Source: a virus (Duplodnaviria > Heunggongvirae > Uroviricota > Caudoviricetes). From it: a stretch of 5,669 nucleotides of DNA. The notes below the pieces were generated by a model that saw only the letters and a program-made list of their open reading frames with translations, made no database searches and had not been told where the DNA came from. Shown here piece after piece: positions 1 through 5,669 of the stretch. The stretch's first letter is position 1, and every line of letters begins with the position of its first letter. Where the stretch lies: the IMG/VR virus record IMGVR_UViG_2778261151_000002, positions 1 to 5,669 of that record; one strand, given 5' to 3'. A program made the translations under genes and the position numbers.

Positions 1-296
1 CGCGTTGTTTCCGGTATATCGACTTTGATGTACGGGTTAATTTGTCTGGCGACAGTGGCAAGGTCTTTATTCAGGAGAGCTTTGCATTCTGCTTCGGTAT
101 ACGTTTTACCAGGCATGATGTCTTTTCCGGTGTGTCCGTGACATACAGTCCATACACCAATGATATCTTTGTATGGTATGTAGCTGACACCTTCCAGACC
201 ATCGTTACCACCTGGGCCAGTGATTAACACAGATGCTATAGCAACAGCCCCGCCACCAATAGCAACTGCAACAGCCTTGCGTAATGATGGCGACAT
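1..296 (-). CDS. R: SAR endolysin (phage-21 R-type lysozyme), N-terminal ~98 aa only; 3' end runs off the window
   Basis: Manual minus-strand translation from ATG 296..294 gives [98 protein letters not shown]... Hydrophobic Gly/Ala-rich N-terminus fits a signal-anchor-release domain, followed by an E-x8-D-x5-T lysozyme catalytic triad. Start overlaps the holin stop (TAATG). Not in the ORF track because no stop lies within the window. Confidence 0.85.
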
Positions 297-511
297 TATT
301 CACCTCTCGCAGCCTTACGCTTATCTTCTCTTATTTTGAAATACAGATTCGTCAGATAAGTCAGAAGCCCCAGAAGCAGACTTCCCAGCACACCAATCGC
401 AGCCCACTGTGATGGACTGACCTGATCAAGCCACTGTAAAAACCAGTAGCCGGCACTGCCTGCGGAGGTGCCGTAGGCAATGCCCGTTGATATTTTGTCC
501 ATGGATTTCAT
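296..511 (-). CDS. S: Class II holin / pinholin, phage-21 S-type (71 aa), with dual-start motif MKSM
   Basis: ORF 296..589 trimmed to ATG at 511..509 ([71 protein letters not shown]). Two predicted TM segments and a charged C-terminus. Strong SD GGAGGTG 6 nt upstream. Second Met at codon 4 matches the antiholin/holin dual-start arrangement known for S21. Confidence 0.9.
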
Positions 512-627
512 AGCCTCACCTCCGCAAATAACGGATGGCGTAGTTCTTATATTGGGAAGGGAAAAAGAAGGCCGCAGCGTAACTGTCACTGATGAATTCA
601 GGATAGCCAGTGGCTACGGCTCAGTTA

Positions 628-703
628 TGGTGCTGGTTAACGGACTTGAACCGCTACCCATTCGCTTACAAGGCGACTGCTCTACCATTGGAGCTAAACC
701 AGC
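628..703 (-). tRNA. tRNA, manual fold gives anticodon UGU (Thr); 76 nt with encoded CCA
   Basis: Minus-strand read: acceptor GCTGGTT/AACCAGC (7 bp), D-arm GCTC-CAATGGTA-GAGC, anticodon arm GTCGC-CTTGTAA-GCGAA (U33, anticodon TGT, A37), 5-nt variable loop, T-arm AGCGG-TTCAAGT-CCGTT, discriminator A, CCA. Isotype assignment is by hand and needs tRNAscan-SE. Confidence 0.75.
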
Positions 704-708
704 ATATT

Positions 709-783
709 TGGCGGGACAGCGTGGACTCGAACCACGATAAGAAGGTTAACAGCCTTCCGTAATGACCTTTATACGACTGACCC
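709..783 (-). tRNA. tRNA, manual fold gives anticodon GUU (Asn); 75 nt with encoded CCA
   Basis: Minus-strand read: acceptor GGGTCAG/CTGTCCC (6 of 7 bp, U-U at 4:69), D-arm GTAT-AAAGGTCA-TTAC, anticodon arm GAAGG-CTGTTAA-CCTTC (perfect 5 bp, U33, anticodon GTT, A37), 4-nt variable loop, canonical T-arm CGTGG-TTCGAGT-CCACG, discriminator G, CCA. Separated from the other tRNA by 5 nt. Confidence 0.7.
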
Positions 784-784
784 C

Positions 785-809
785 AATAAAAAATCCCGAA
801 ACCGTTATG
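785..809 (-). terminator. Possible tR'-like late terminator remnant (T-tract with conserved 3' arm only)
   Basis: Minus strand reads GCATAACGGTTTCGGGATTTTTTATT, which matches my recollection of the 3' half of lambda tR'. I could not find the complementary 5' arm (CCCGAAAC) upstream, so a stable hairpin is not evident. Confidence 0.3.
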
Positions 810-933
810 CAGGCTCTATTCCTATGTGCTCTCGAGTTTATGATGCGCATGTCAGCGCGCTTAGAACTTAAAGATGAGGTGGGTAAAAAACCGAAAGAAT
901 GTGAACGGATATAAATCTGCCATTCTTGAGTCA

Positions 934-962
934 AATTTACCCAACTTTATTCAAAAAGTCAA
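934..962 (-). promoter_or_regulatory. Late promoter pR' with Q-utilisation (qut) region, lambda type
   Basis: Minus strand immediately after the Q stop: TTGACT (962..957), 17-bp spacer TTTTGAATAAAGTTGGG, TAAATT (939..934), then TGACTCAAG. This is near-identical to my recollection of lambda pR' -35/-10 and the intervening Q-binding element. Confidence 0.8.
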
Positions 963-1004
963 TATCATGCCGTTAATATGTTGCCATCCGTGGCAATCAT
1001 GCTG

Positions 1005-1628
1005 CTAACGTGTGACCGCATTCAAAATGTTGTCTGCGATTGACTCTTCTTTGTGGCATTGCACCACCAGGGCGTCATACAGCGGCTTAACAGTGCGTGA
1101 CCAGGTGGGTTGAGTAAGGTTTGGGATTAGCATCGTTACAGCGCGATATGCTGCGCTTGCTGGCATCCTTGAATAACCGACGCCTTTACATCTTCCGCAC
1201 TCTTTCTCAACAACTCTCCCCCACTGCTCTGTTTTTGCTATATCAACTGCCCGGCCTGTACCGTGGCAATCTCTGCATCTTGCGCCCGGCGTCGCGGCAC
1301 TACGACAATAATCCGCATAAGCGAATGTTGCGAGCACTTGCAGTACCTTTGCCTTAGTGTTTCCTTCGAGCTTTGCCACACCACGGTATTTCCCCGATAC
1401 CTTGTGTGCAAATTGCATCAGATAGTTGATAGCCTTTTGTTTGTCGTTCTGGCTGAGTTCATGCTTACCGCAAAATGCAGCCATTCCGAATCCGGCTTGT
1501 GATTGCGCCATCCCCATAGCAGCCATCACATCAGTACCGGAAAGAGAGTCAGAAGCCGTAGCCCGTGGTGAGTCGCTCATCATCGGGCTTTTTGGCGAAT
1601 GAAATTTAGCTACGCTTTCGAGTCTCAT
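1005..1628 (-). CDS. Q: Late-gene antitermination protein Q (lambda-type, 207 aa)
   Basis: Full-length ORF MRLESVAKFHSPKSPMMSDSPRATASDS...CRDCHGTGRAV...ECGRCKGVGY...NAVTR, with the zinc-binding Cys cluster and the length of lambda Q. Start overlaps the ninH stop (ATGA). Lies directly upstream of the pR'/qut sequence. Confidence 0.95.
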   Translation of the reverse strand: MRLESVAKFHSPKSPMMSDSPRATASDSLSGTDVMAAMGMAQSQAGFGMAAFCGKHELSQNDKQKAINYLMQFAHKVSGKYRGVAKLEGNTKAKVLQVLATFAYADYCRSAATPGARCRDCHGTGRAVDIAKTEQWGRVVEKECGRCKGVGYSRMPASAAYRAVTMLIPNLTQPTWSRTVKPLYDALVVQCHKEESIADNILNAVTR

Positions 1629-1813
1629 CGTCTTCCCCTCTTGCCCTGTTTGACCATCAGGACGCCGTTAACTATTACGTGACGCTCGCCTTTGCTGTCT
1701 CGGTTGTACTTGAGCACTGTTCCTCTTGCGCAGGAAAGCATCCTCGCCACTTCGGTCTGATTGCCTCGTGTCTGGATAAGAAGCTCTGGTATCGTTTGAA
1801 TTGTGGCGTTCAT
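1625..1813 (-). CDS. ninH: NinH-like small DNA-binding protein (62 aa)
   Basis: MNATIQTIPELLIQTRGNQTEVARMLSCARGTVLKYNRDSKGERHVIVNGVLMV... resembles lambda NinH (GNQTEVARRL...RGTV..KY...H.IVN.VLMV) as I recall it. Position immediately upstream of Q as in lambda. ATGA overlaps on both sides. Confidence 0.8.
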   Translation of the reverse strand: MNATIQTIPELLIQTRGNQTEVARMLSCARGTVLKYNRDSKGERHVIVNGVLMVKQGKRGRR

Positions 1814-2172
1814 ACGTTCTCCAGTTCGGTGATTTTTATTCCAAGCCTTCCGCCTGGTACTTTCACACCACGAATTACGCGAATGTCATCGAATTGCTCG
1901 TCGTCTTCCGCAAATCCGGCGTGGATAAGAGAGTCGAGTAGCCCCTTCAGGATGTTGTCGAGGTCGCGGCGGCGGGAGTCTGGAACGTCTGCGATGACTT
2001 TGATGCGGAGTCGTGCTTTGGTGAAAATATCTAACTTGAGTTGGCGGATGATTTGCTGAACGTCTTTTCGGTATTTCTGGCCTTTATCGCTGATGTAGTA
2101 TCGGCTTCCCCGTCTTCGCCAGTAGGTGTTCAGCGACGGCGGGTATGGAAGCGTGAATCTGTACTCATTCAT
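1810..2172 (-). CDS. rusA: Holliday-junction resolvase RusA (120 aa)
   Basis: MNEYRFTLPYPPSLNTYWRRRGSRYYISDKGQKYRKDV...DSRRRDLDNILKGLLDSL...GGRLGIKITELENV matches the RusA family pattern (LPxPPS.N, RRRDLDN catalytic acidic cluster) and length. Occupies the slot held by rap/ninG in lambda. Confidence 0.9.
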   Translation of the reverse strand: MNEYRFTLPYPPSLNTYWRRRGSRYYISDKGQKYRKDVQQIIRQLKLDIFTKARLRIKVIADVPDSRRRDLDNILKGLLDSLIHAGFAEDDEQFDDIRVIRGVKVPGGRLGIKITELENV

Positions 2173-2939
2173 GCAGCCTCCCCTGTTACTTTCAGCATTC
2201 CGTTATCGAGCAGCTTTCTGGTCAGCCACTGTTGACCACGCCCGGTGATTTTTGTGGTGAACGATATCTGTATTCCGTGATTTGTGTTGACCGCTGTTTC
2301 TTTCACTGTGAAATAGCCGCGATCCATATATTCCTGCATTGGCACATTGCGCCGGGAACCTGAAGCAATAAGGATTTTGTGATCACGCATCCACGCAAAC
2401 AGTTTGTTTGGGCCAATACCAACAACCTTTGCAAAGTTTCCAATCAAAATTCCGCTGGCCTCGCCAACGCGATCGGCAAACTCAACTTTAGGTGCGGCAA
2501 TCGCGAGTTGTTGCTCCAGCTTCACTTTCTGCTCATATTCGTTTGCCCACGCTCTGGCGGCTTCAGCAGGGTTTGTGAAGTCGGGCAAGGCTGACTTATC
2601 TTCTTTTTGGCCACGAAAATAATTGCGAACAAGCTCACGTTGCACTCTCCACGCCGTCTCGTCGCGCAGGGTTTTAACCAGCATCAAATAGCCTGATTCA
2701 GTGAAAACTCGCATGCCACGAGGAGGAATTTCAAAACCCCTTCTAAAGGTATTTTCATGAAAATCAATAAAATATGTATCTTCCCTGTCTATGAAATACT
2801 CAGAGTTTCGCGCATAGCCATTTTGAATAGTGGCTACTGGAACCCCGTGAATATCAGCAATCATTTGATACGTAACAACACGCTCGCCATTAAACTCAAT
2901 CGGCACGATTTCTGCGTTGGCAATAATTACGGCATTCAT
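2169..2939 (-). CDS. Phage antirepressor-like protein, ORF6N (KilA-N-like) N-terminal domain + KilA-C/ANT C-terminal domain (256 aa)
   Basis: N-terminus IEFNGERVVTYQMIADIHGV...PRGMRVFTESGYLMLVKTLRDETAWRVQRELVRNYF fits the ORF6N pattern (P..FTE.G..ML...L....A). C-terminus FADRVGEASGILIGNFAKVVGIGPNKLFAWMRDHKIL fits the KilA-C/ANT domain. Start ATG overlaps the upstream stop (ATGA at 2936..2939); stop overlaps the rusA start. Confidence 0.8.
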   Translation of the reverse strand: MNAVIIANAEIVPIEFNGERVVTYQMIADIHGVPVATIQNGYARNSEYFIDREDTYFIDFHENTFRRGFEIPPRGMRVFTESGYLMLVKTLRDETAWRVQRELVRNYFRGQKEDKSALPDFTNPAEAARAWANEYEQKVKLEQQLAIAAPKVEFADRVGEASGILIGNFAKVVGIGPNKLFAWMRDHKILIASGSRRNVPMQEYMDRGYFTVKETAVNTNHGIQISFTTKITGRGQQWLTRKLLDNGMLKVTGEAA

Positions 2940-3190
2940 GCAACACCTCCTTCAACGACAATAATGCTGTCGCGCTTACCTTGTTCGCCTTCGAAGACGT
3001 AATGCTCGTACTGAACATTGAACCCTAAGTTATTGATTCTTTCGGAAACCTCAATTTGAGGAAGCCGGATAACTCCACTTTTAACCAGCGTTTCGATGGT
3101 ACGTTTCACATTGTCATGACGCTTACCCACCAACTCAGCGATTTCAATGCTGGTCATTTTGATGGCGTTGCTATTTATCAGCTCGTTCAT
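2936..3190 (-). CDS. Small Rha-family-like phage regulatory protein (84 aa), stand-alone N-terminal-domain-only form
   Basis: MNELINSNAIKMTSIEIAELVGKRHDNVKRTIETLVKSG... has the KRHDNV-R-I motif typical of phage Rha N-terminal domains. Start chosen at ATG 3190..3188 (SD GAGAGGA about 7 nt upstream) rather than the ATG at 3196, whose spacer is too short. Stop overlaps the Ant start. Confidence 0.55.
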   Translation of the reverse strand: MNELINSNAIKMTSIEIAELVGKRHDNVKRTIETLVKSGVIRLPQIEVSERINNLGFNVQYEHYVFEGEQGKRDSIIVVEGGVA

Positions 3191-3220
3191 TGTCATGTCC
3201 TCTCATATTGAAAATTCAGC

Positions 3221-3246
3221 AATAAAAAACCCAGCCGAAGCTGGGT
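3221..3246 (-). terminator. Rho-independent terminator (minus strand) immediately downstream of the Roi-like gene
   Basis: Minus strand reads CCCAGC-TTCG-GCTGGG followed by TTTTTTATT: a 6-bp GC-rich stem, UUCG tetraloop and U6 tract. The plus strand has no T-tract after the hairpin, so it is unidirectional. Confidence 0.8.
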
Positions 3247-3264
3247 CGTTGCGTTGGCAATCTG

Positions 3265-3969
3265 TCAGTAGTGATGTAGTGAAGGAGGTAATTCTTTGTT
3301 CTTAAGTCTTACCCATGCAGAAAGATTCGTTGGTCCGTCTGGCTCATTAATATCAACATCTCGTGTGTGATTGATTAAAACGTCTCTCGCCATTCCGATA
3401 ACATACGAGAACTCATGACCGTAGTCGTGGCATCTGCCGGAATAGTTAGACTGAATTTGTCTTAGCGCCGGATACAGTTCGCGGAATAATGCCTGTGAGC
3501 GGTTGGCATAATCCCACAACCATACCAGACTGTTTGCATCTTTTGCAGAAAGCTCGCTGGTTTTCTTCTCGTGATGACCTGCGCTTTTCGAAGTCTGGCT
3601 GAAATAGCAGTCTTCCAGTTTTTCGAACACGTCCCATGCCTGATCGGTTTCGAGCATCTTCGCGTGACGGGCTGCGCCTCGTTCTGTCCAGAGGATGAGC
3701 GAGCGGGTTTTCGGGGAAATTTGTAACCCTCTTAAAGATGGTTGCAAATTTTGTGAGTAGTTTAAAGCTACCCGCAATTCTTTAAGGTCATTACCAACAA
3801 CTTTGAAAAAGTGTTTCCCTTCAACGAAGCGTACTTTGTTCTCATGATGATTCTGGCGAATACGCACCGGCTCAGTGCCGTAAAGCTGCGCCAAAAGTTC
3901 AGTGGTAATAACAGGTATCTGGTTATGGGTGATCGGGGAGAGAGTTTCAACAGCAATTTGAGTTGTCAT
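3265..3969 (-). CDS. Roi-like DNA-binding protein: ORF6N (KilA-N-like) N-terminal domain + C-terminal domain of unknown function (234 aa)
   Basis: N-terminus [37 protein letters not shown]...[35 protein letters not shown] fits the ORF6N pattern and recalls HK022/HK97 Roi. C-terminal ~110 aa has no motif I recognise. Strong SD GGAGGTG 6 nt before ATG 3969. Flanked by intrinsic terminators on both sides. Confidence 0.7.
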
Positions 3970-4130
3970 AGTGACACCTCCGGTAGATGTTTCAGAACAT
4001 CACCACCTTCAGGTGCTAATCATCGGGTGGCGAGACGTACAGGGTTAGCACTACCGGATCTACCAACCGGCCAGCCTTTCGGCTGCCCCATACGCCCCAC
4101 CATAATTCAGATGTGCGTGCGCATACGACA

Positions 4131-4154
4131 ATAAAAAACACGCTTGCGGCGTGT
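4131..4154 (-). terminator. Rho-independent terminator (minus strand) upstream of the Roi-like gene, downstream of the ninE/antisense-TA region
   Basis: Minus strand reads ACACGC-CGCAA-GCGTGT followed by TTTTTTAT (6-bp stem, 5-nt loop, T-tract). Fits the position of a nin-region tR-type terminator. Confidence 0.75.
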
Positions 4155-4290
4155 GTCTGTCGCGGTAGTTATCCGGGGTGCTAATCCCGACGCCAGATTT
4201 TGCTGGCGTATGAGGAATATAGCCCCGGATATGTGTTGTCGTCAACTACAGGCCTTGAATGCATATAACGATTTTGTTATGTTGATACCT

Positions 4291-4620
4291 ATGAACTACA
4301 CTATCGAATACTACAGTGAAGATGTAAGGCTGGAAGTCGATCGGCTTCCATTGAGTATGCGTGCCCGATACCAACATCTCGTTGAACGTATGAAGATATA
4401 TGGCAGCAATCTCGGAGAACCTCACACCAGCGCCTTTGGTGACGGGCTTTTCGAACTCAGAATTAAAGGCAACGATGGGATCGCGCGTGTTTTTTACTGC
4501 ACTCTGACAGGGAAACGCATCATCATGCTGCATAGTTTTGTAAAGAAAACGCAGAAAACACCGCCAGCCGAACGCAAGAAAGCTGAAACCAGAATGAAGG
4601 AGGTTAAGCATGACTGGTAA
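4291..4620 (+). CDS. RelE/ParE-superfamily toxin-like protein (Gp49/HigB-like, ~109 aa)
   Basis: MNYTIEYYSEDVRLEVDRLP...GDGLFELRIKGNDGIARVFYCTLTGKRIIMLHSFVKKTQKTPPAERKKAETRMKE matches the Gp49-like/HigB-like pattern (F.LR......R..Y......I..L..F.KK.QKTP..E...A). ORF-track ORF 4144..4620 trimmed to an internal ATG. Alternative ATG at 4279 (MLIPMNYT...); neither has a clear SD. Stop TAA overlaps the antitoxin gene by 11 nt. Confidence 0.75.
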   Translation: MNYTIEYYSEDVRLEVDRLPLSMRARYQHLVERMKIYGSNLGEPHTSAFGDGLFELRIKGNDGIARVFYCTLTGKRIIMLHSFVKKTQKTPPAERKKAETRMKEVKHDW

Positions 4621-4918
4621 ACGCACTCTCCCCACCATGACACACGACGAAATGGCAGCCAAATGGATGGAAGACCCGGCTTTTAAAGCAGAATACGACG
4701 CTATCGCTGACGAATTCGCACTGCTTGATGAAATGCTGGCAGCACGCAAAGAAGCTGGCTTAACTCAGGCTGAAGTTGCCGAGCGAATGGGAACAAAAGC
4801 GACCGCGATCACCAGAATGGAAAGTAATCTCGCATCAGGTATCAGCGGCCCATCATTTGCCACACTAAAAAAATTCGCCCGCGCTACTGGAAAAAAACTC
4901 CAGATCCGCTTCGTTTAA
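4610..4918 (+). CDS. HTH-XRE antitoxin-like protein (HigA-like, 102 aa)
   Basis: MTGKRTLPTMTHDEMAAKWMEDPAFKAEYDAIADEFALLDEMLAARKEAGLTQAEVAERMGTKATAITRMESN...FATLKKFARATGKKLQIRFV has a helix-turn-helix (LTQAEVAERMGT...ITRMES) and the conserved C-terminal L.IR.V tail seen in antitoxins partnered with Gp49/HigB-like toxins. Strong SD AAGGAGGT 6 nt before the ATG. Overlaps the toxin gene. Confidence 0.8.
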   Translation: MTGKRTLPTMTHDEMAAKWMEDPAFKAEYDAIADEFALLDEMLAARKEAGLTQAEVAERMGTKATAITRMESNLASGISGPSFATLKKFARATGKKLQIRFV

Positions 4919-4959
4919 CCACACCGCGCCGTCATTCTGGCGGCGCACCGGATAAATAG

Positions 4960-5136
4960 TCATTTCCTCGCACGATGTCTTAGCCACCGGATATCCCACA
5001 GGTGAGCCGTGTAGTTGAAGGTTTTTACGTCAGATTCTTTTGGGATTGGCTTGCGTTTATTTCTGGAGCGTTTCGTTGGAAGGTATTTGCAGTTTTCGCA
5101 GATGATGTCGGTGAAACTTCGTCGCTGTCGTCTCAT
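4960..5136 (-). CDS. ninE: NinE-like small protein (58 aa)
   Basis: [58 protein letters not shown] resembles lambdoid NinE as I recall it. Start ATG overlaps the ninB stop (ATGA at 5133..5136). The ORF-track version (from 5196) uses an upstream GTG that overlaps ninB; an alternative in-frame ATG at 5154 cannot be excluded. Confidence 0.7.
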
Positions 5137-5573
5137 GCCGCCCTGTCTCCCCATCGCGCTTTCCACTCCAGAGCCAGTCGCGCTTCGTCTGACCACTTAA
5201 CGCCACGCTCTGTACCGAATGCCTGTATAAGCTCTAATAGCTCCGCAAATTCGCTTACACGCATCCTGCTGGTTGACTGGCCTATTACCACAAAGCCATT
5301 CCCGGCAAGGTTAGGAACAACGTCCTGCTGCTTTAATGCTGCGGTAAACACACACTTCCAGCTTTCTGCATCCAGCCAGCGACCATGCCATTCAACCTGA
5401 CGAGAGACGTCACCAAGGCAAGCCCAAAGCTTTCGATTCTGGTCTAAGCTGCGGTTGCGTTCCTGAATGGTTACTACGATTGGTTTGGTTGGGTCTGGAA
5501 GAATTTGCTGTACTGCGTGAATAGCGTTTTGCTGATGTGCTGGAGATCGAATTTCAAAGGTTAGTTTTTTCAT
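5133..5573 (-). CDS. ninB: Recombination protein NinB (Orf family, 146 aa)
   Basis: [76 protein letters not shown]...[16 protein letters not shown] is essentially lambda NinB as I recall it. True start at ATG 5573 with SD GGGAGAGGGAAG upstream; the ORF-track start at 5591 is an upstream TTG. Confidence 0.95.
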
Positions 5574-5669
5574 GACTTCCCTCTCCCCCAAAGTAAGCGG
5601 CTCGCCAGAACCGTATTGATATTTACTGAGAAGTCAGATCAACTTTCCAGGGCAACAGATCGCGTACCC

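Follow-up and report, generated by a model that had tools for sequence, protein, structure and literature searches.

Two antirepressor loci under RNA control stand closest to the element examined here, a cassette of about 1 kb on the minus strand (4245..3221) of positions 1 to 5,669 of the caudovirus record IMGVR_UViG_2778261151_000002 (hereinafter the window, i.e., that whole stretch of 5,669 nucleotides (nt)). First, in the immI region of phages P1 and P7, the c4 RNA pairs at the ribosome-binding site (RBS), blocks antirepressor synthesis through the a2/b2 sites and sets the heteroimmunity of the two phages (PMC12197685). Second, in the isrK–orf45–anrP–isrJ locus of the Gifsy-1 prophage of Salmonella Typhimurium (Hershko-Shalev et al. 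2016; PMC4825925), the isrK promoter drives, and is required for, anrP transcription, with partial read-through of the IsrK terminator shown experimentally (PMC4825925). The long operon RNA of Gifsy-1 is transcribed but not translated at rest; the short IsrK RNA supplied in trans raises a translational fusion 139-fold and a transcriptional fusion 8-fold; AnrP induces the prophage; and processing of the region matched by Rfam C4 yields a stable RNA, STnc1160 (all PMC4825925). Both IsrK and STnc1160 are highly expressed from the Gifsy-1 prophage in all conditions tested (PMC7067206). Third, related ant genes are found in Shiga-toxin phages, such as Phi24B, where lysogens show weak ant expression (PMC3064807) and where a phage lacking the gene has, once induced, about 30% of the wild-type late-promoter activity, i.e., Ant aids induction.

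Read on the minus strand, the window covers the part of a lambdoid prophage that runs from the nin region to the lysis genes, and the cassette occupies a position in this nin region between ninE and the roi locus. Our analysis indicates that this cassette is very probably an RNA-controlled antirepressor unit of the P1-immI/Gifsy-1 isrK–anrP type. Cassettes of this kind are already known, and that of the window is an uncharacterised new member that would not surprise a specialist. Its 3' two-thirds had been described in an initial annotation of this DNA as a gene flanked by a terminator on either side; what appears there to be an intergenic leader holds two functional RNAs, IsrK and C4.

The antirepressor gene, its promoter and its terminators

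All Rfam families were searched against the window, and three matches above the curated thresholds were obtained, all on the minus strand: isrK, c4-a1b1 and C4. Using the P1 naming, in which a denotes the junction element and b the loop element, the components of the cassette are as follows.

4245..4216, minus strand: cassette promoter (PisrK-like), with the −35 box TTGACG (4245..4240), an 18-nt spacer and the −10 box TATATT (4221..4216)
4222..4170, minus strand: Rfam c4-a1b1 match (47.2 bits; gathering threshold 46.7)
4209..4133, minus strand: IsrK small RNA (sRNA), 77 nt (Rfam isrK RF01394, 80.4 bits; gathering threshold 50; E = 1e-16)
4184..4178, minus strand: a1, in the loop of IsrK hairpin 2, UUAGCAC, complementary to a' (read from the sequence)
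4168..4163, minus strand: b1, in IsrK, CUACCG, complementary to b' (read from the sequence)
4154..4131, minus strand: upstream (IsrK) terminator, stem 4154..4138 of 6 pairs (4 G-C) with a 5-nt loop, then UUUUUUAUU
4107..4023, minus strand: C4 antisense RNA, homologue of STnc1160 (Rfam RF01695, 71.8 bits; gathering threshold 45; E = 4.5e-13)
4103..4020, minus strand: upstream open reading frame (ORF) in C4, 27 amino acids, with AUGs at 4103..4101 and, in frame, at 4091, as in Gifsy-1 orf45 (from translation)
4066..4058, minus strand: b', the loop of C4 hairpin 2, UUGGUAGAU
4051..4045, minus strand: a', the C4 3' junction, GUGCUAA
4019..4013, minus strand: a2, just 3' of C4, UUAGCAC, an exact repeat of a1, complementary to a' (read from the sequence)
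3988..3980, minus strand: b2, AUCUACCGG, complementary to b' over 9 bp and overlapping the ant Shine–Dalgarno sequence
3981..3975, minus strand: ant Shine–Dalgarno sequence (SD), GGAGGUG, 5 nt before the AUG
3969..3265, minus strand: ant, 234 amino acids, with an ORF6N domain (residues 12-105) and a P22 antirepressor C-domain (residues 134-206; Pfam)
3221..3247, minus strand: downstream terminator, stem 3247..3228 of 8 pairs (5 G-C) with a UUCG loop, then UUUUUUAUU

The 234-residue product is, as judged by its homologies, an Ant-type antirepressor. It matches PHROG 377 ('anti-repressor Ant') over its full length (E = 6e-82) and is 85% identical to the Ant protein of VT2-Sakai, with an N-domain 67% identical to that of Gifsy-1 AnrP. 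The ORF6N domain noted in the initial annotation was borne out, whereas the C-terminal ~110 residues, to which no family had been given, match Pfam P22_AR_C (PF10548; 98.9 bits, E = 2e-28), and the last 104 residues (131-234) are 87.5% identical to P22 Ant. With P22 Ant it shares this C-terminal part and, presumably, the role of inactivating a c2/CI-type repressor; the two differ in the N-domain (ORF6N here, P22_AR_N there) and in their control, which is by a C4-type RNA here and by sar RNA and Arc/Mnt in P22. No match to sar RNA was found in the window with Rfam. A sequence search for a solved structure related to Ant returned none.

ORF6N is classed with the KilA-N/Bro-N domains, which are of DNA-binding type, and on that general classification the protein might be taken for a DNA-binding regulator or an exclusion factor of the Roi kind, as the earlier label 'Roi-like' had suggested, rather than an antirepressor. 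We regard this as quite unlikely, for the protein has neither a Rha nor a KilAC domain (Pfam). The Roi homologue is instead the gene at the next locus (2939..2169), an ORF6N–KilAC protein, the C-terminal 132 residues of which are 90% identical to VT2-Sakai Roi (KilAC); VT2-Sakai Roi itself is made up of Phage_pRha and ANT, neither of which is present in the 234-residue protein. The 87.5% identity of the last 104 residues to P22 Ant argues in the same direction, as does the fact that Gifsy-1 AnrP, with which the N-domain is shared, induces its prophage (PMC4825925).

For the comparisons that follow, 124 loci were retrieved via the Ant protein alone, of which 85 have the whole leader directly upstream of ant. 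These yielded 40 distinct leaders (41 with Gifsy-1) from Escherichia, Salmonella, Pectobacterium, Serratia, Izhakiella and Limnobaculum. The cassette promoter is the top sigma-70-like site of the window in a consensus scan (10/12 consensus matches), and its TTGAC and TATA.T show little or no variation across the 41 distinct homologues, while the upstream flank and the spacer vary; homology among the loci starts 0-3 nt from the −35 box. Transcription would start at about 4209, some 7 nt past the −10 box, which is also the first base of the isrK match. Within the spacer (4238..4222), the CCGGGGC just before the −10 box is nearly invariant in the 41 homologues while the rest varies, and it could be a candidate binding site for a regulator of IsrK transcription.

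Both terminators lie where the initial annotation had located them. The upstream one, which is the last hairpin of IsrK, has a folding energy of −13.8 kcal/mol (z = −3.05 against shuffles); its U-run is invariant in 41/41 distinct homologous leaders, and its stem-loop differs from that of the Gifsy-1 IsrK terminator at a single position, located in the loop. The downstream one begins 17 nt past the ant stop codon (−16.1 kcal/mol, z = −2.9), and its hairpin ACCCAGCUUCGGCUGGGU with the U-run recurs at an identical distance from the stop codon in 23 of the 31 distinct regions compared downstream of ant. The number of terminator-like sites in the window, 9 compared to 5.8 ± 2.4 in shuffles, is not above chance; it is their conservation across homologues, and not this number, that makes the two terminators credible. 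With the promoter placed upstream of both, the first terminator lies inside the unit and must be read through for ant to be transcribed: it would act as a leaky attenuator between IsrK and C4–ant and is not, as had been proposed, an insulator.

The unit is autonomous and, by analogy with its homologues, is probably transcribed in lysogens. The view that it is an insulated moron, with a promoter within 3970..4130, a protein made in the repressed prophage and a resulting host phenotype, draws on three points: both terminators are real, the unit is autonomous and portable (lying in the nin region of the window and downstream of Q in Gifsy-1), and homologous RNAs are expressed in lysogens (PMC7067206). 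Nevertheless, we consider it highly improbable. The consensus scan agrees with the earlier remark that 3970..4130 has no sigma-70-like site; that stretch lacks a promoter because it consists of the C4 antisense RNA and its target sites, and the conserved promoter is found ahead of the first terminator. Thus, the proposal of an autonomous unit with its own promoter and terminator within the early/nin region stands, except that the promoter is not between the two terminators. Likewise, expression from the repressed prophage is upheld at the level of transcription, since homologous units are transcribed in lysogens, but not at that of protein, as the Gifsy-1 operon is not translated at rest. The strong SD (GGAGGUG) is present as claimed; being the target of an antisense RNA, it does not allow protein to be deduced from transcription in a lysogen. 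Finally, the encoded protein is an antirepressor, and in place of a moron-like accessory gene we see a phage regulatory module that, to go by the promotion of induction by Gifsy-1 AnrP and Phi24B Ant, would serve lysogeny and induction. A general lesson for annotation is that a terminator–gene–terminator picture without a visible promoter can hide a small-RNA switch.

Covariation of C4 with two sets of target sites

IsrK is laid out as hairpin 1, hairpin 2 with a1 in its loop, b1 and the terminator, and is the equivalent of the a1/b1 leader of P1-type immI; compensatory changes occur at 5/7 pairs of its hairpin 1. The C4 RNA has a folding energy of −43.5 kcal/mol (z = −3.8), and its fold matches that of the family, with a long basal stem that displays a conserved CCACC at its 3' end, two hairpins and a single-stranded 3' junction. 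Its stems show 10 compensatory pairs, namely 5 in the basal stem and 5/5 in hairpin 1.

The pairing of C4 with its targets is best seen in the alignment of the 41 leaders. When the combined structure is specified, 97% of cells are paired, compared to 36-45% after shifting the partners by 1 to 3 columns, and changes on both sides occur at 21 pairs against 10.6 ± 1.4 in shuffles, none of the 500 shuffles being as high. Both helices formed by the junction element contribute: a':a2 has both-side changes at 5/7 pairs with 98.5% of cells paired, and a1:a' likewise at 5/7 pairs with 97.9%. For b', pairs could not be counted by column, as the position of the target relative to the SD shifts between types, and the longest complementary run was used instead as an alignment-free test. 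By this test, 10 types of junction and 12 of loop are present in the 41 sequences, combined in 17 ways. Each junction forms a Watson–Crick run of 7-8 bp with both of its own sites, whereas non-cognate sites give a mean of 3.2 bp and none reaches 7; for the loop against IsrK, cognate runs average 5.8 bp versus 3.7 bp for non-cognate ones. In all 23 distinct loop/leader combinations the loop target falls in the initiation region, its end lying anywhere from −3 to 16 nt upstream of the ant AUG. Covariation is thus three-way, linking the C4 elements to the upstream as well as to the downstream target sites, with at least 17 specificity combinations among 41 homologues. The b' loop type of the window was not found among the other loci fetched.

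A pattern scan with an IsrK motif returned 120 further modules in viral contigs with about 20 loop/junction combinations. Their cargo proteins have a common ORF6N N-domain and at least two different C-domains.

The Gifsy-1 locus gives the same series of Rfam matches in the same order as the window (isrK, c4-a1b1 and C4, then anrP), followed there by isrJ. The two share the promoter type, an IsrK that stands immediately before the antirepressor operon and has a promoter and a Rho-independent terminator of its own, the placement of a1/b1 and a2/b2, and a loop target that overlaps the SD GGAGG; IsrK is 87% and C4/STnc1160 86% identical between them. They differ in specificity, with a being UUAGCAC here and UUGGCGU in Gifsy-1 and the b' loop UUGGUAGAU here and UCGGUGAU there, and in the antirepressor C-domain, which is P22-type here and of another type in AnrP. 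Further, ant is followed by a plain UUCG terminator, in contrast to the IsrJ sRNA at the 3' end of the Gifsy-1 operon (isrJ has no match at E ≤ 1 in the window with Rfam, whereas Gifsy-1 scores 100 bits), and the cassette is located in the nin region, upstream of Q, while that of Gifsy-1 is downstream of it.

In Gifsy-1, the pairs G28-C162 and G31-C159 have been proven by compensatory mutation (PMC4825925). Counted from the start of IsrK, they fall in a1 (nt 26-32) and a' (nt 158-164), i.e., in the same helix that covaries here. The compensatory double mutants remain derepressed, at 224 and 327 units versus 4 (PMC4825925), and because they do, they fit a third partner, a2: their derepression would reflect a need for a' to pair with the unmutated a2 as well.

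The immI region of P1 presents a comparable series: c4-a1b1, a sub-threshold isrK match with a terminator, and C4, followed by the a2, b2, icd and ant1 of the record. As in P1/P7, the cassette of the window runs from a promoter through a1, b1 and a terminator-like hairpin to C4, a2, b2 over the first RBS and the antirepressor, with a' in the 3' junction and b' in the hairpin-2 loop, and short complementary elements set the specificity. It is unlike P1 in that ant follows directly after b2, whereas in P1 the translationally coupled icd (73 amino acids) stands between b2 and ant; in P1, moreover, the C1 operator lies on one promoter, Ant1 has KilAC but neither ORF6N nor P22_AR_C, and the prophage is a plasmid and not lambdoid. 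The P1 record labels a1 and b1 merely as 'putative' target sites. The P1 leader that holds them (12231..12312 of our locus L129) matches isrK at 35 bits (E = 1e-5), which is below threshold, and ends in a hairpin with a U-run; going by this match, P1 may also release an IsrK-like sRNA.

The comparative data thereby connect the P1 c4 and Salmonella IsrK, which until now have been described separately. We tentatively propose that IsrK and the a1/b1 leader of P1-type immI are the same thing, namely a terminated sRNA resembling the mRNA target of C4 and competing with it for C4; this seems to us a genuine possibility, if one not yet to be favored. Were it true, all such cassettes would represent one three-partner RNA switch, composed of a decoy sRNA, an antisense RNA and an RBS, and the orf45 coupling of Gifsy-1 would be a lineage-specific addition. 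The two short elements would then reassort freely to give a large set of 'addresses' orthogonal to one another (17 or more combinations among the 41 sequences, about 20 among the 120), through which several co-resident prophages could each control their own antirepressor.

A proposed mechanism and its alternatives

On the reading of the cassette as an RNA-controlled antirepressor unit, the sigma-70 promoter at 4245..4216 would fire with a start near 4209, and the majority of transcripts would end at the first terminator, giving the 77-nt IsrK with a1 and b1. A minority would read through to give an RNA of ~985 nt that holds C4, a2, b2 and ant and ends at the second terminator. In this RNA, the exposed b' and a' of C4 would pair with b2 (over the ant SD) and a2, excluding ribosomes, so that no antirepressor would be made in the quiescent prophage. 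The a1/b1 of IsrK would pair with a'/b' of C4 within the read-through RNA, and the abundant short IsrK would act in trans as a decoy, freeing the RBS of ant; Ant would then bind and inactivate the prophage repressor, promoting or accelerating induction. For the transcription steps (IsrK termination and read-through to ant) and the pairings, support comes from sequence and comparison here and from experiments in homologues. We infer that the pairing of C4 with a2/b2 is the repressing step in this allele. In P1/P7, C4 is cut from a precursor transcript by RNase P and works as a stable RNA, and in the window, too, C4 would be processed out of the transcript.

Several observations weigh against this reading. 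The mechanism as set out for this allele draws on its sequence and its homologues, and the presumed target of Ant, the prophage repressor, lies outside the window. The b':b2 duplex reaches −10.6 kcal/mol in RNAduplex, with 2.6% of shuffled targets equally good, and across the short complementarities of this one sequence 2.6% to 24% of dinucleotide-shuffled targets do as well, i.e., they are weakly above chance; hence, the case rests on the covariation among homologues. In the predicted minimum free energy (MFE) fold of the full read-through leader, IsrK is paired in cis with the C4 region, as in 'structure A' of Gifsy-1, and the SD is only partly paired (unpaired probability 0.32). When C4 was co-folded with the leader or with IsrK in RNAcofold, the gain was zero or −2.8 kcal/mol; as the method cannot model loop–loop (kissing) pairs, this null does not count against the interaction. 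Two experimental results from Gifsy-1 also bear on the model: constitutive STnc1160 (C4) did not counteract IsrK, the growth arrest being stronger, and a1 mutations in cis also raised translation (both PMC4825925). The plain picture of a C4 repressor and an IsrK decoy is therefore incomplete, and folding in cis matters too. Lastly, the orf45 coupling that is needed in Gifsy-1 is absent here, and the details may differ accordingly.

One alternative is that the Gifsy-1 mechanism applies literally, i.e., that the cis fold alone represses, that IsrK in trans opens the orf45 RBS with coupling then reaching ant, and that the separate C4 is non-repressing. This has been shown in Gifsy-1 (PMC4825925), the window retains both in-frame orf45 AUGs (4103 and 4091), and the full-leader MFE fold resembles structure A. 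For the present allele we nonetheless find it improbable. The 27-residue ORF is uncoupled, with its stop 50 nt before the ant AUG, unlike the 45-residue orf45 of Gifsy-1, which overlaps the antirepressor start (AUGA) and is needed for its translation. Among the 41 homologues, the upstream ORF ranges from 3 to >54 residues with no conserved frame or stop, and the 45-residue form with a stop overlapping the antirepressor AUG is found in Gifsy-1 only; in the Rfam model, the AUGG belongs to the conserved stem of C4. Moreover, the literal mechanism accounts neither for the covariation of a2/b2 with C4 nor for the fact that b2 invariably overlaps the region where ant translation is initiated. The 27-residue ORF is thus probably not a functional coupling ORF in this allele, and, per the comparative data, a coupled upstream ORF is not a general feature. 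A coupled ORF like orf45 or the orf34 of VT2-Sakai was considered as a component of the cassette and rejected for want of conservation.

A second alternative is that C4 acts mainly on transcription, in the manner of the P4 CI RNA or of the icd/Rho polarity of P1: instead of blocking ribosomes, its pairing would make transcripts end early, either at the IsrK terminator or, through Rho, within the untranslated leader. C4 and P4 CI belong to one Rfam clan, the authors of the Gifsy-1 study themselves raised the possibility, and IsrK in trans raised the Gifsy-1 transcriptional fusion as well (PMC4825925). Still, that rise was 8-fold against 139-fold for the translational fusion (PMC4825925), and a loss of translation would cause secondary polarity in any case. 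The loop target tracks the SD or the AUG in every variant, which points to ribosome occlusion, and we accordingly hold a mainly transcriptional action to be unlikely.

Distribution and genomic setting

The cassette was found in 318 phage records, in most of the Shiga-toxin phages searched, and in 1422 of 5426 complete E. coli genomes (about a quarter), at up to 6 places per genome. Antirepressor cassettes being this common in E. coli and in Shiga-toxin phages, they bear on the timing with which toxin-carrying prophages are switched on. IsrK and C4 were annotated in none of the phage and E. coli records inspected. In the Shiga-toxin phages (VT2-Sakai ant/orf34; Phi24B ant), the cassette likewise lies between ninE and roi and is followed by the same downstream terminator. 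The window differs from them in its a/b specificity elements, in a 10-residue deletion in the N-domain, and in having a toxin–antitoxin insertion upstream and a rearranged roi locus downstream.

Where modules share a contig or genome, at least one specificity element differs in 5/7 cases (L139 3965..7400; IMG genomes 2519899560, 2703718801, 2778261453 and 2579779049), seven cases being too few to judge avoidance by co-resident copies. On L139, two modules 3.2 kb apart share the junction type and differ in the loop type, while two genomes hold identical module pairs. Five loci (L042, L065, L068, L069 and L070) show a second, weaker nhmmer match ~760 nt downstream of the first, covering the C4-leader part (query positions 135-320) and lying directly before ant, after a full module and a truncated ant ORF (111-121 residues); these may represent a tandem or partly duplicated cassette.

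The gene order of the window, on the minus strand, is NinB, NinE, the cassette, a Rha-family fragment, the ORF6N–KilAC gene, RusA, NinH, Q, two tRNAs, holin and endolysin. Between ninE and the cassette promoter, on the opposite strand, lies a toxin–antitoxin pair (4291..4918, plus strand), consisting of a Gp49/RelE-ParE-type toxin of 109 residues and an overlapping helix-turn-helix antitoxin of 102 residues. The pair is divergent from PisrK, and both promoters must therefore share ~80 bp. Among the fetched loci, it recurs as a neighbor of the cassette only in L004-L007 (100% identical), with C4 specificity elements unlike those of the window. Downstream, the roi locus (3196..2169, minus strand) is rearranged into an 86-residue Rha-type N-terminal fragment, which is an annotated pseudogene in the closest RefSeq genome, followed by the 256-residue ORF6N + KilAC protein. 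The window thus has two antirepressor-like genes in tandem, and the C4 module precedes the first only.

The closest E. coli match is FDAARGOS_943 (L128, 5284..7515), which is 99.9% identical over the cassette and diverges from the window upstream of ninE, where a DNA methyltransferase gene separates its ninE from its ninB and an IS600 insertion splits the latter. From this sequence comparison, the prophage of the window is related, but not identical, to that of FDAARGOS_943.

Toward the lysis end of the window (783..628 and 962..934, minus strand), tRNA-Asn(GUU) and tRNA-Thr(UGU) lie between Q and the holin gene and are preceded by a promoter-like site (TTGACT, 17 nt, TAAATT) where the late promoter pR' is expected. 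The lysis genes themselves code for a class II holin and an RrrD-type lysozyme.

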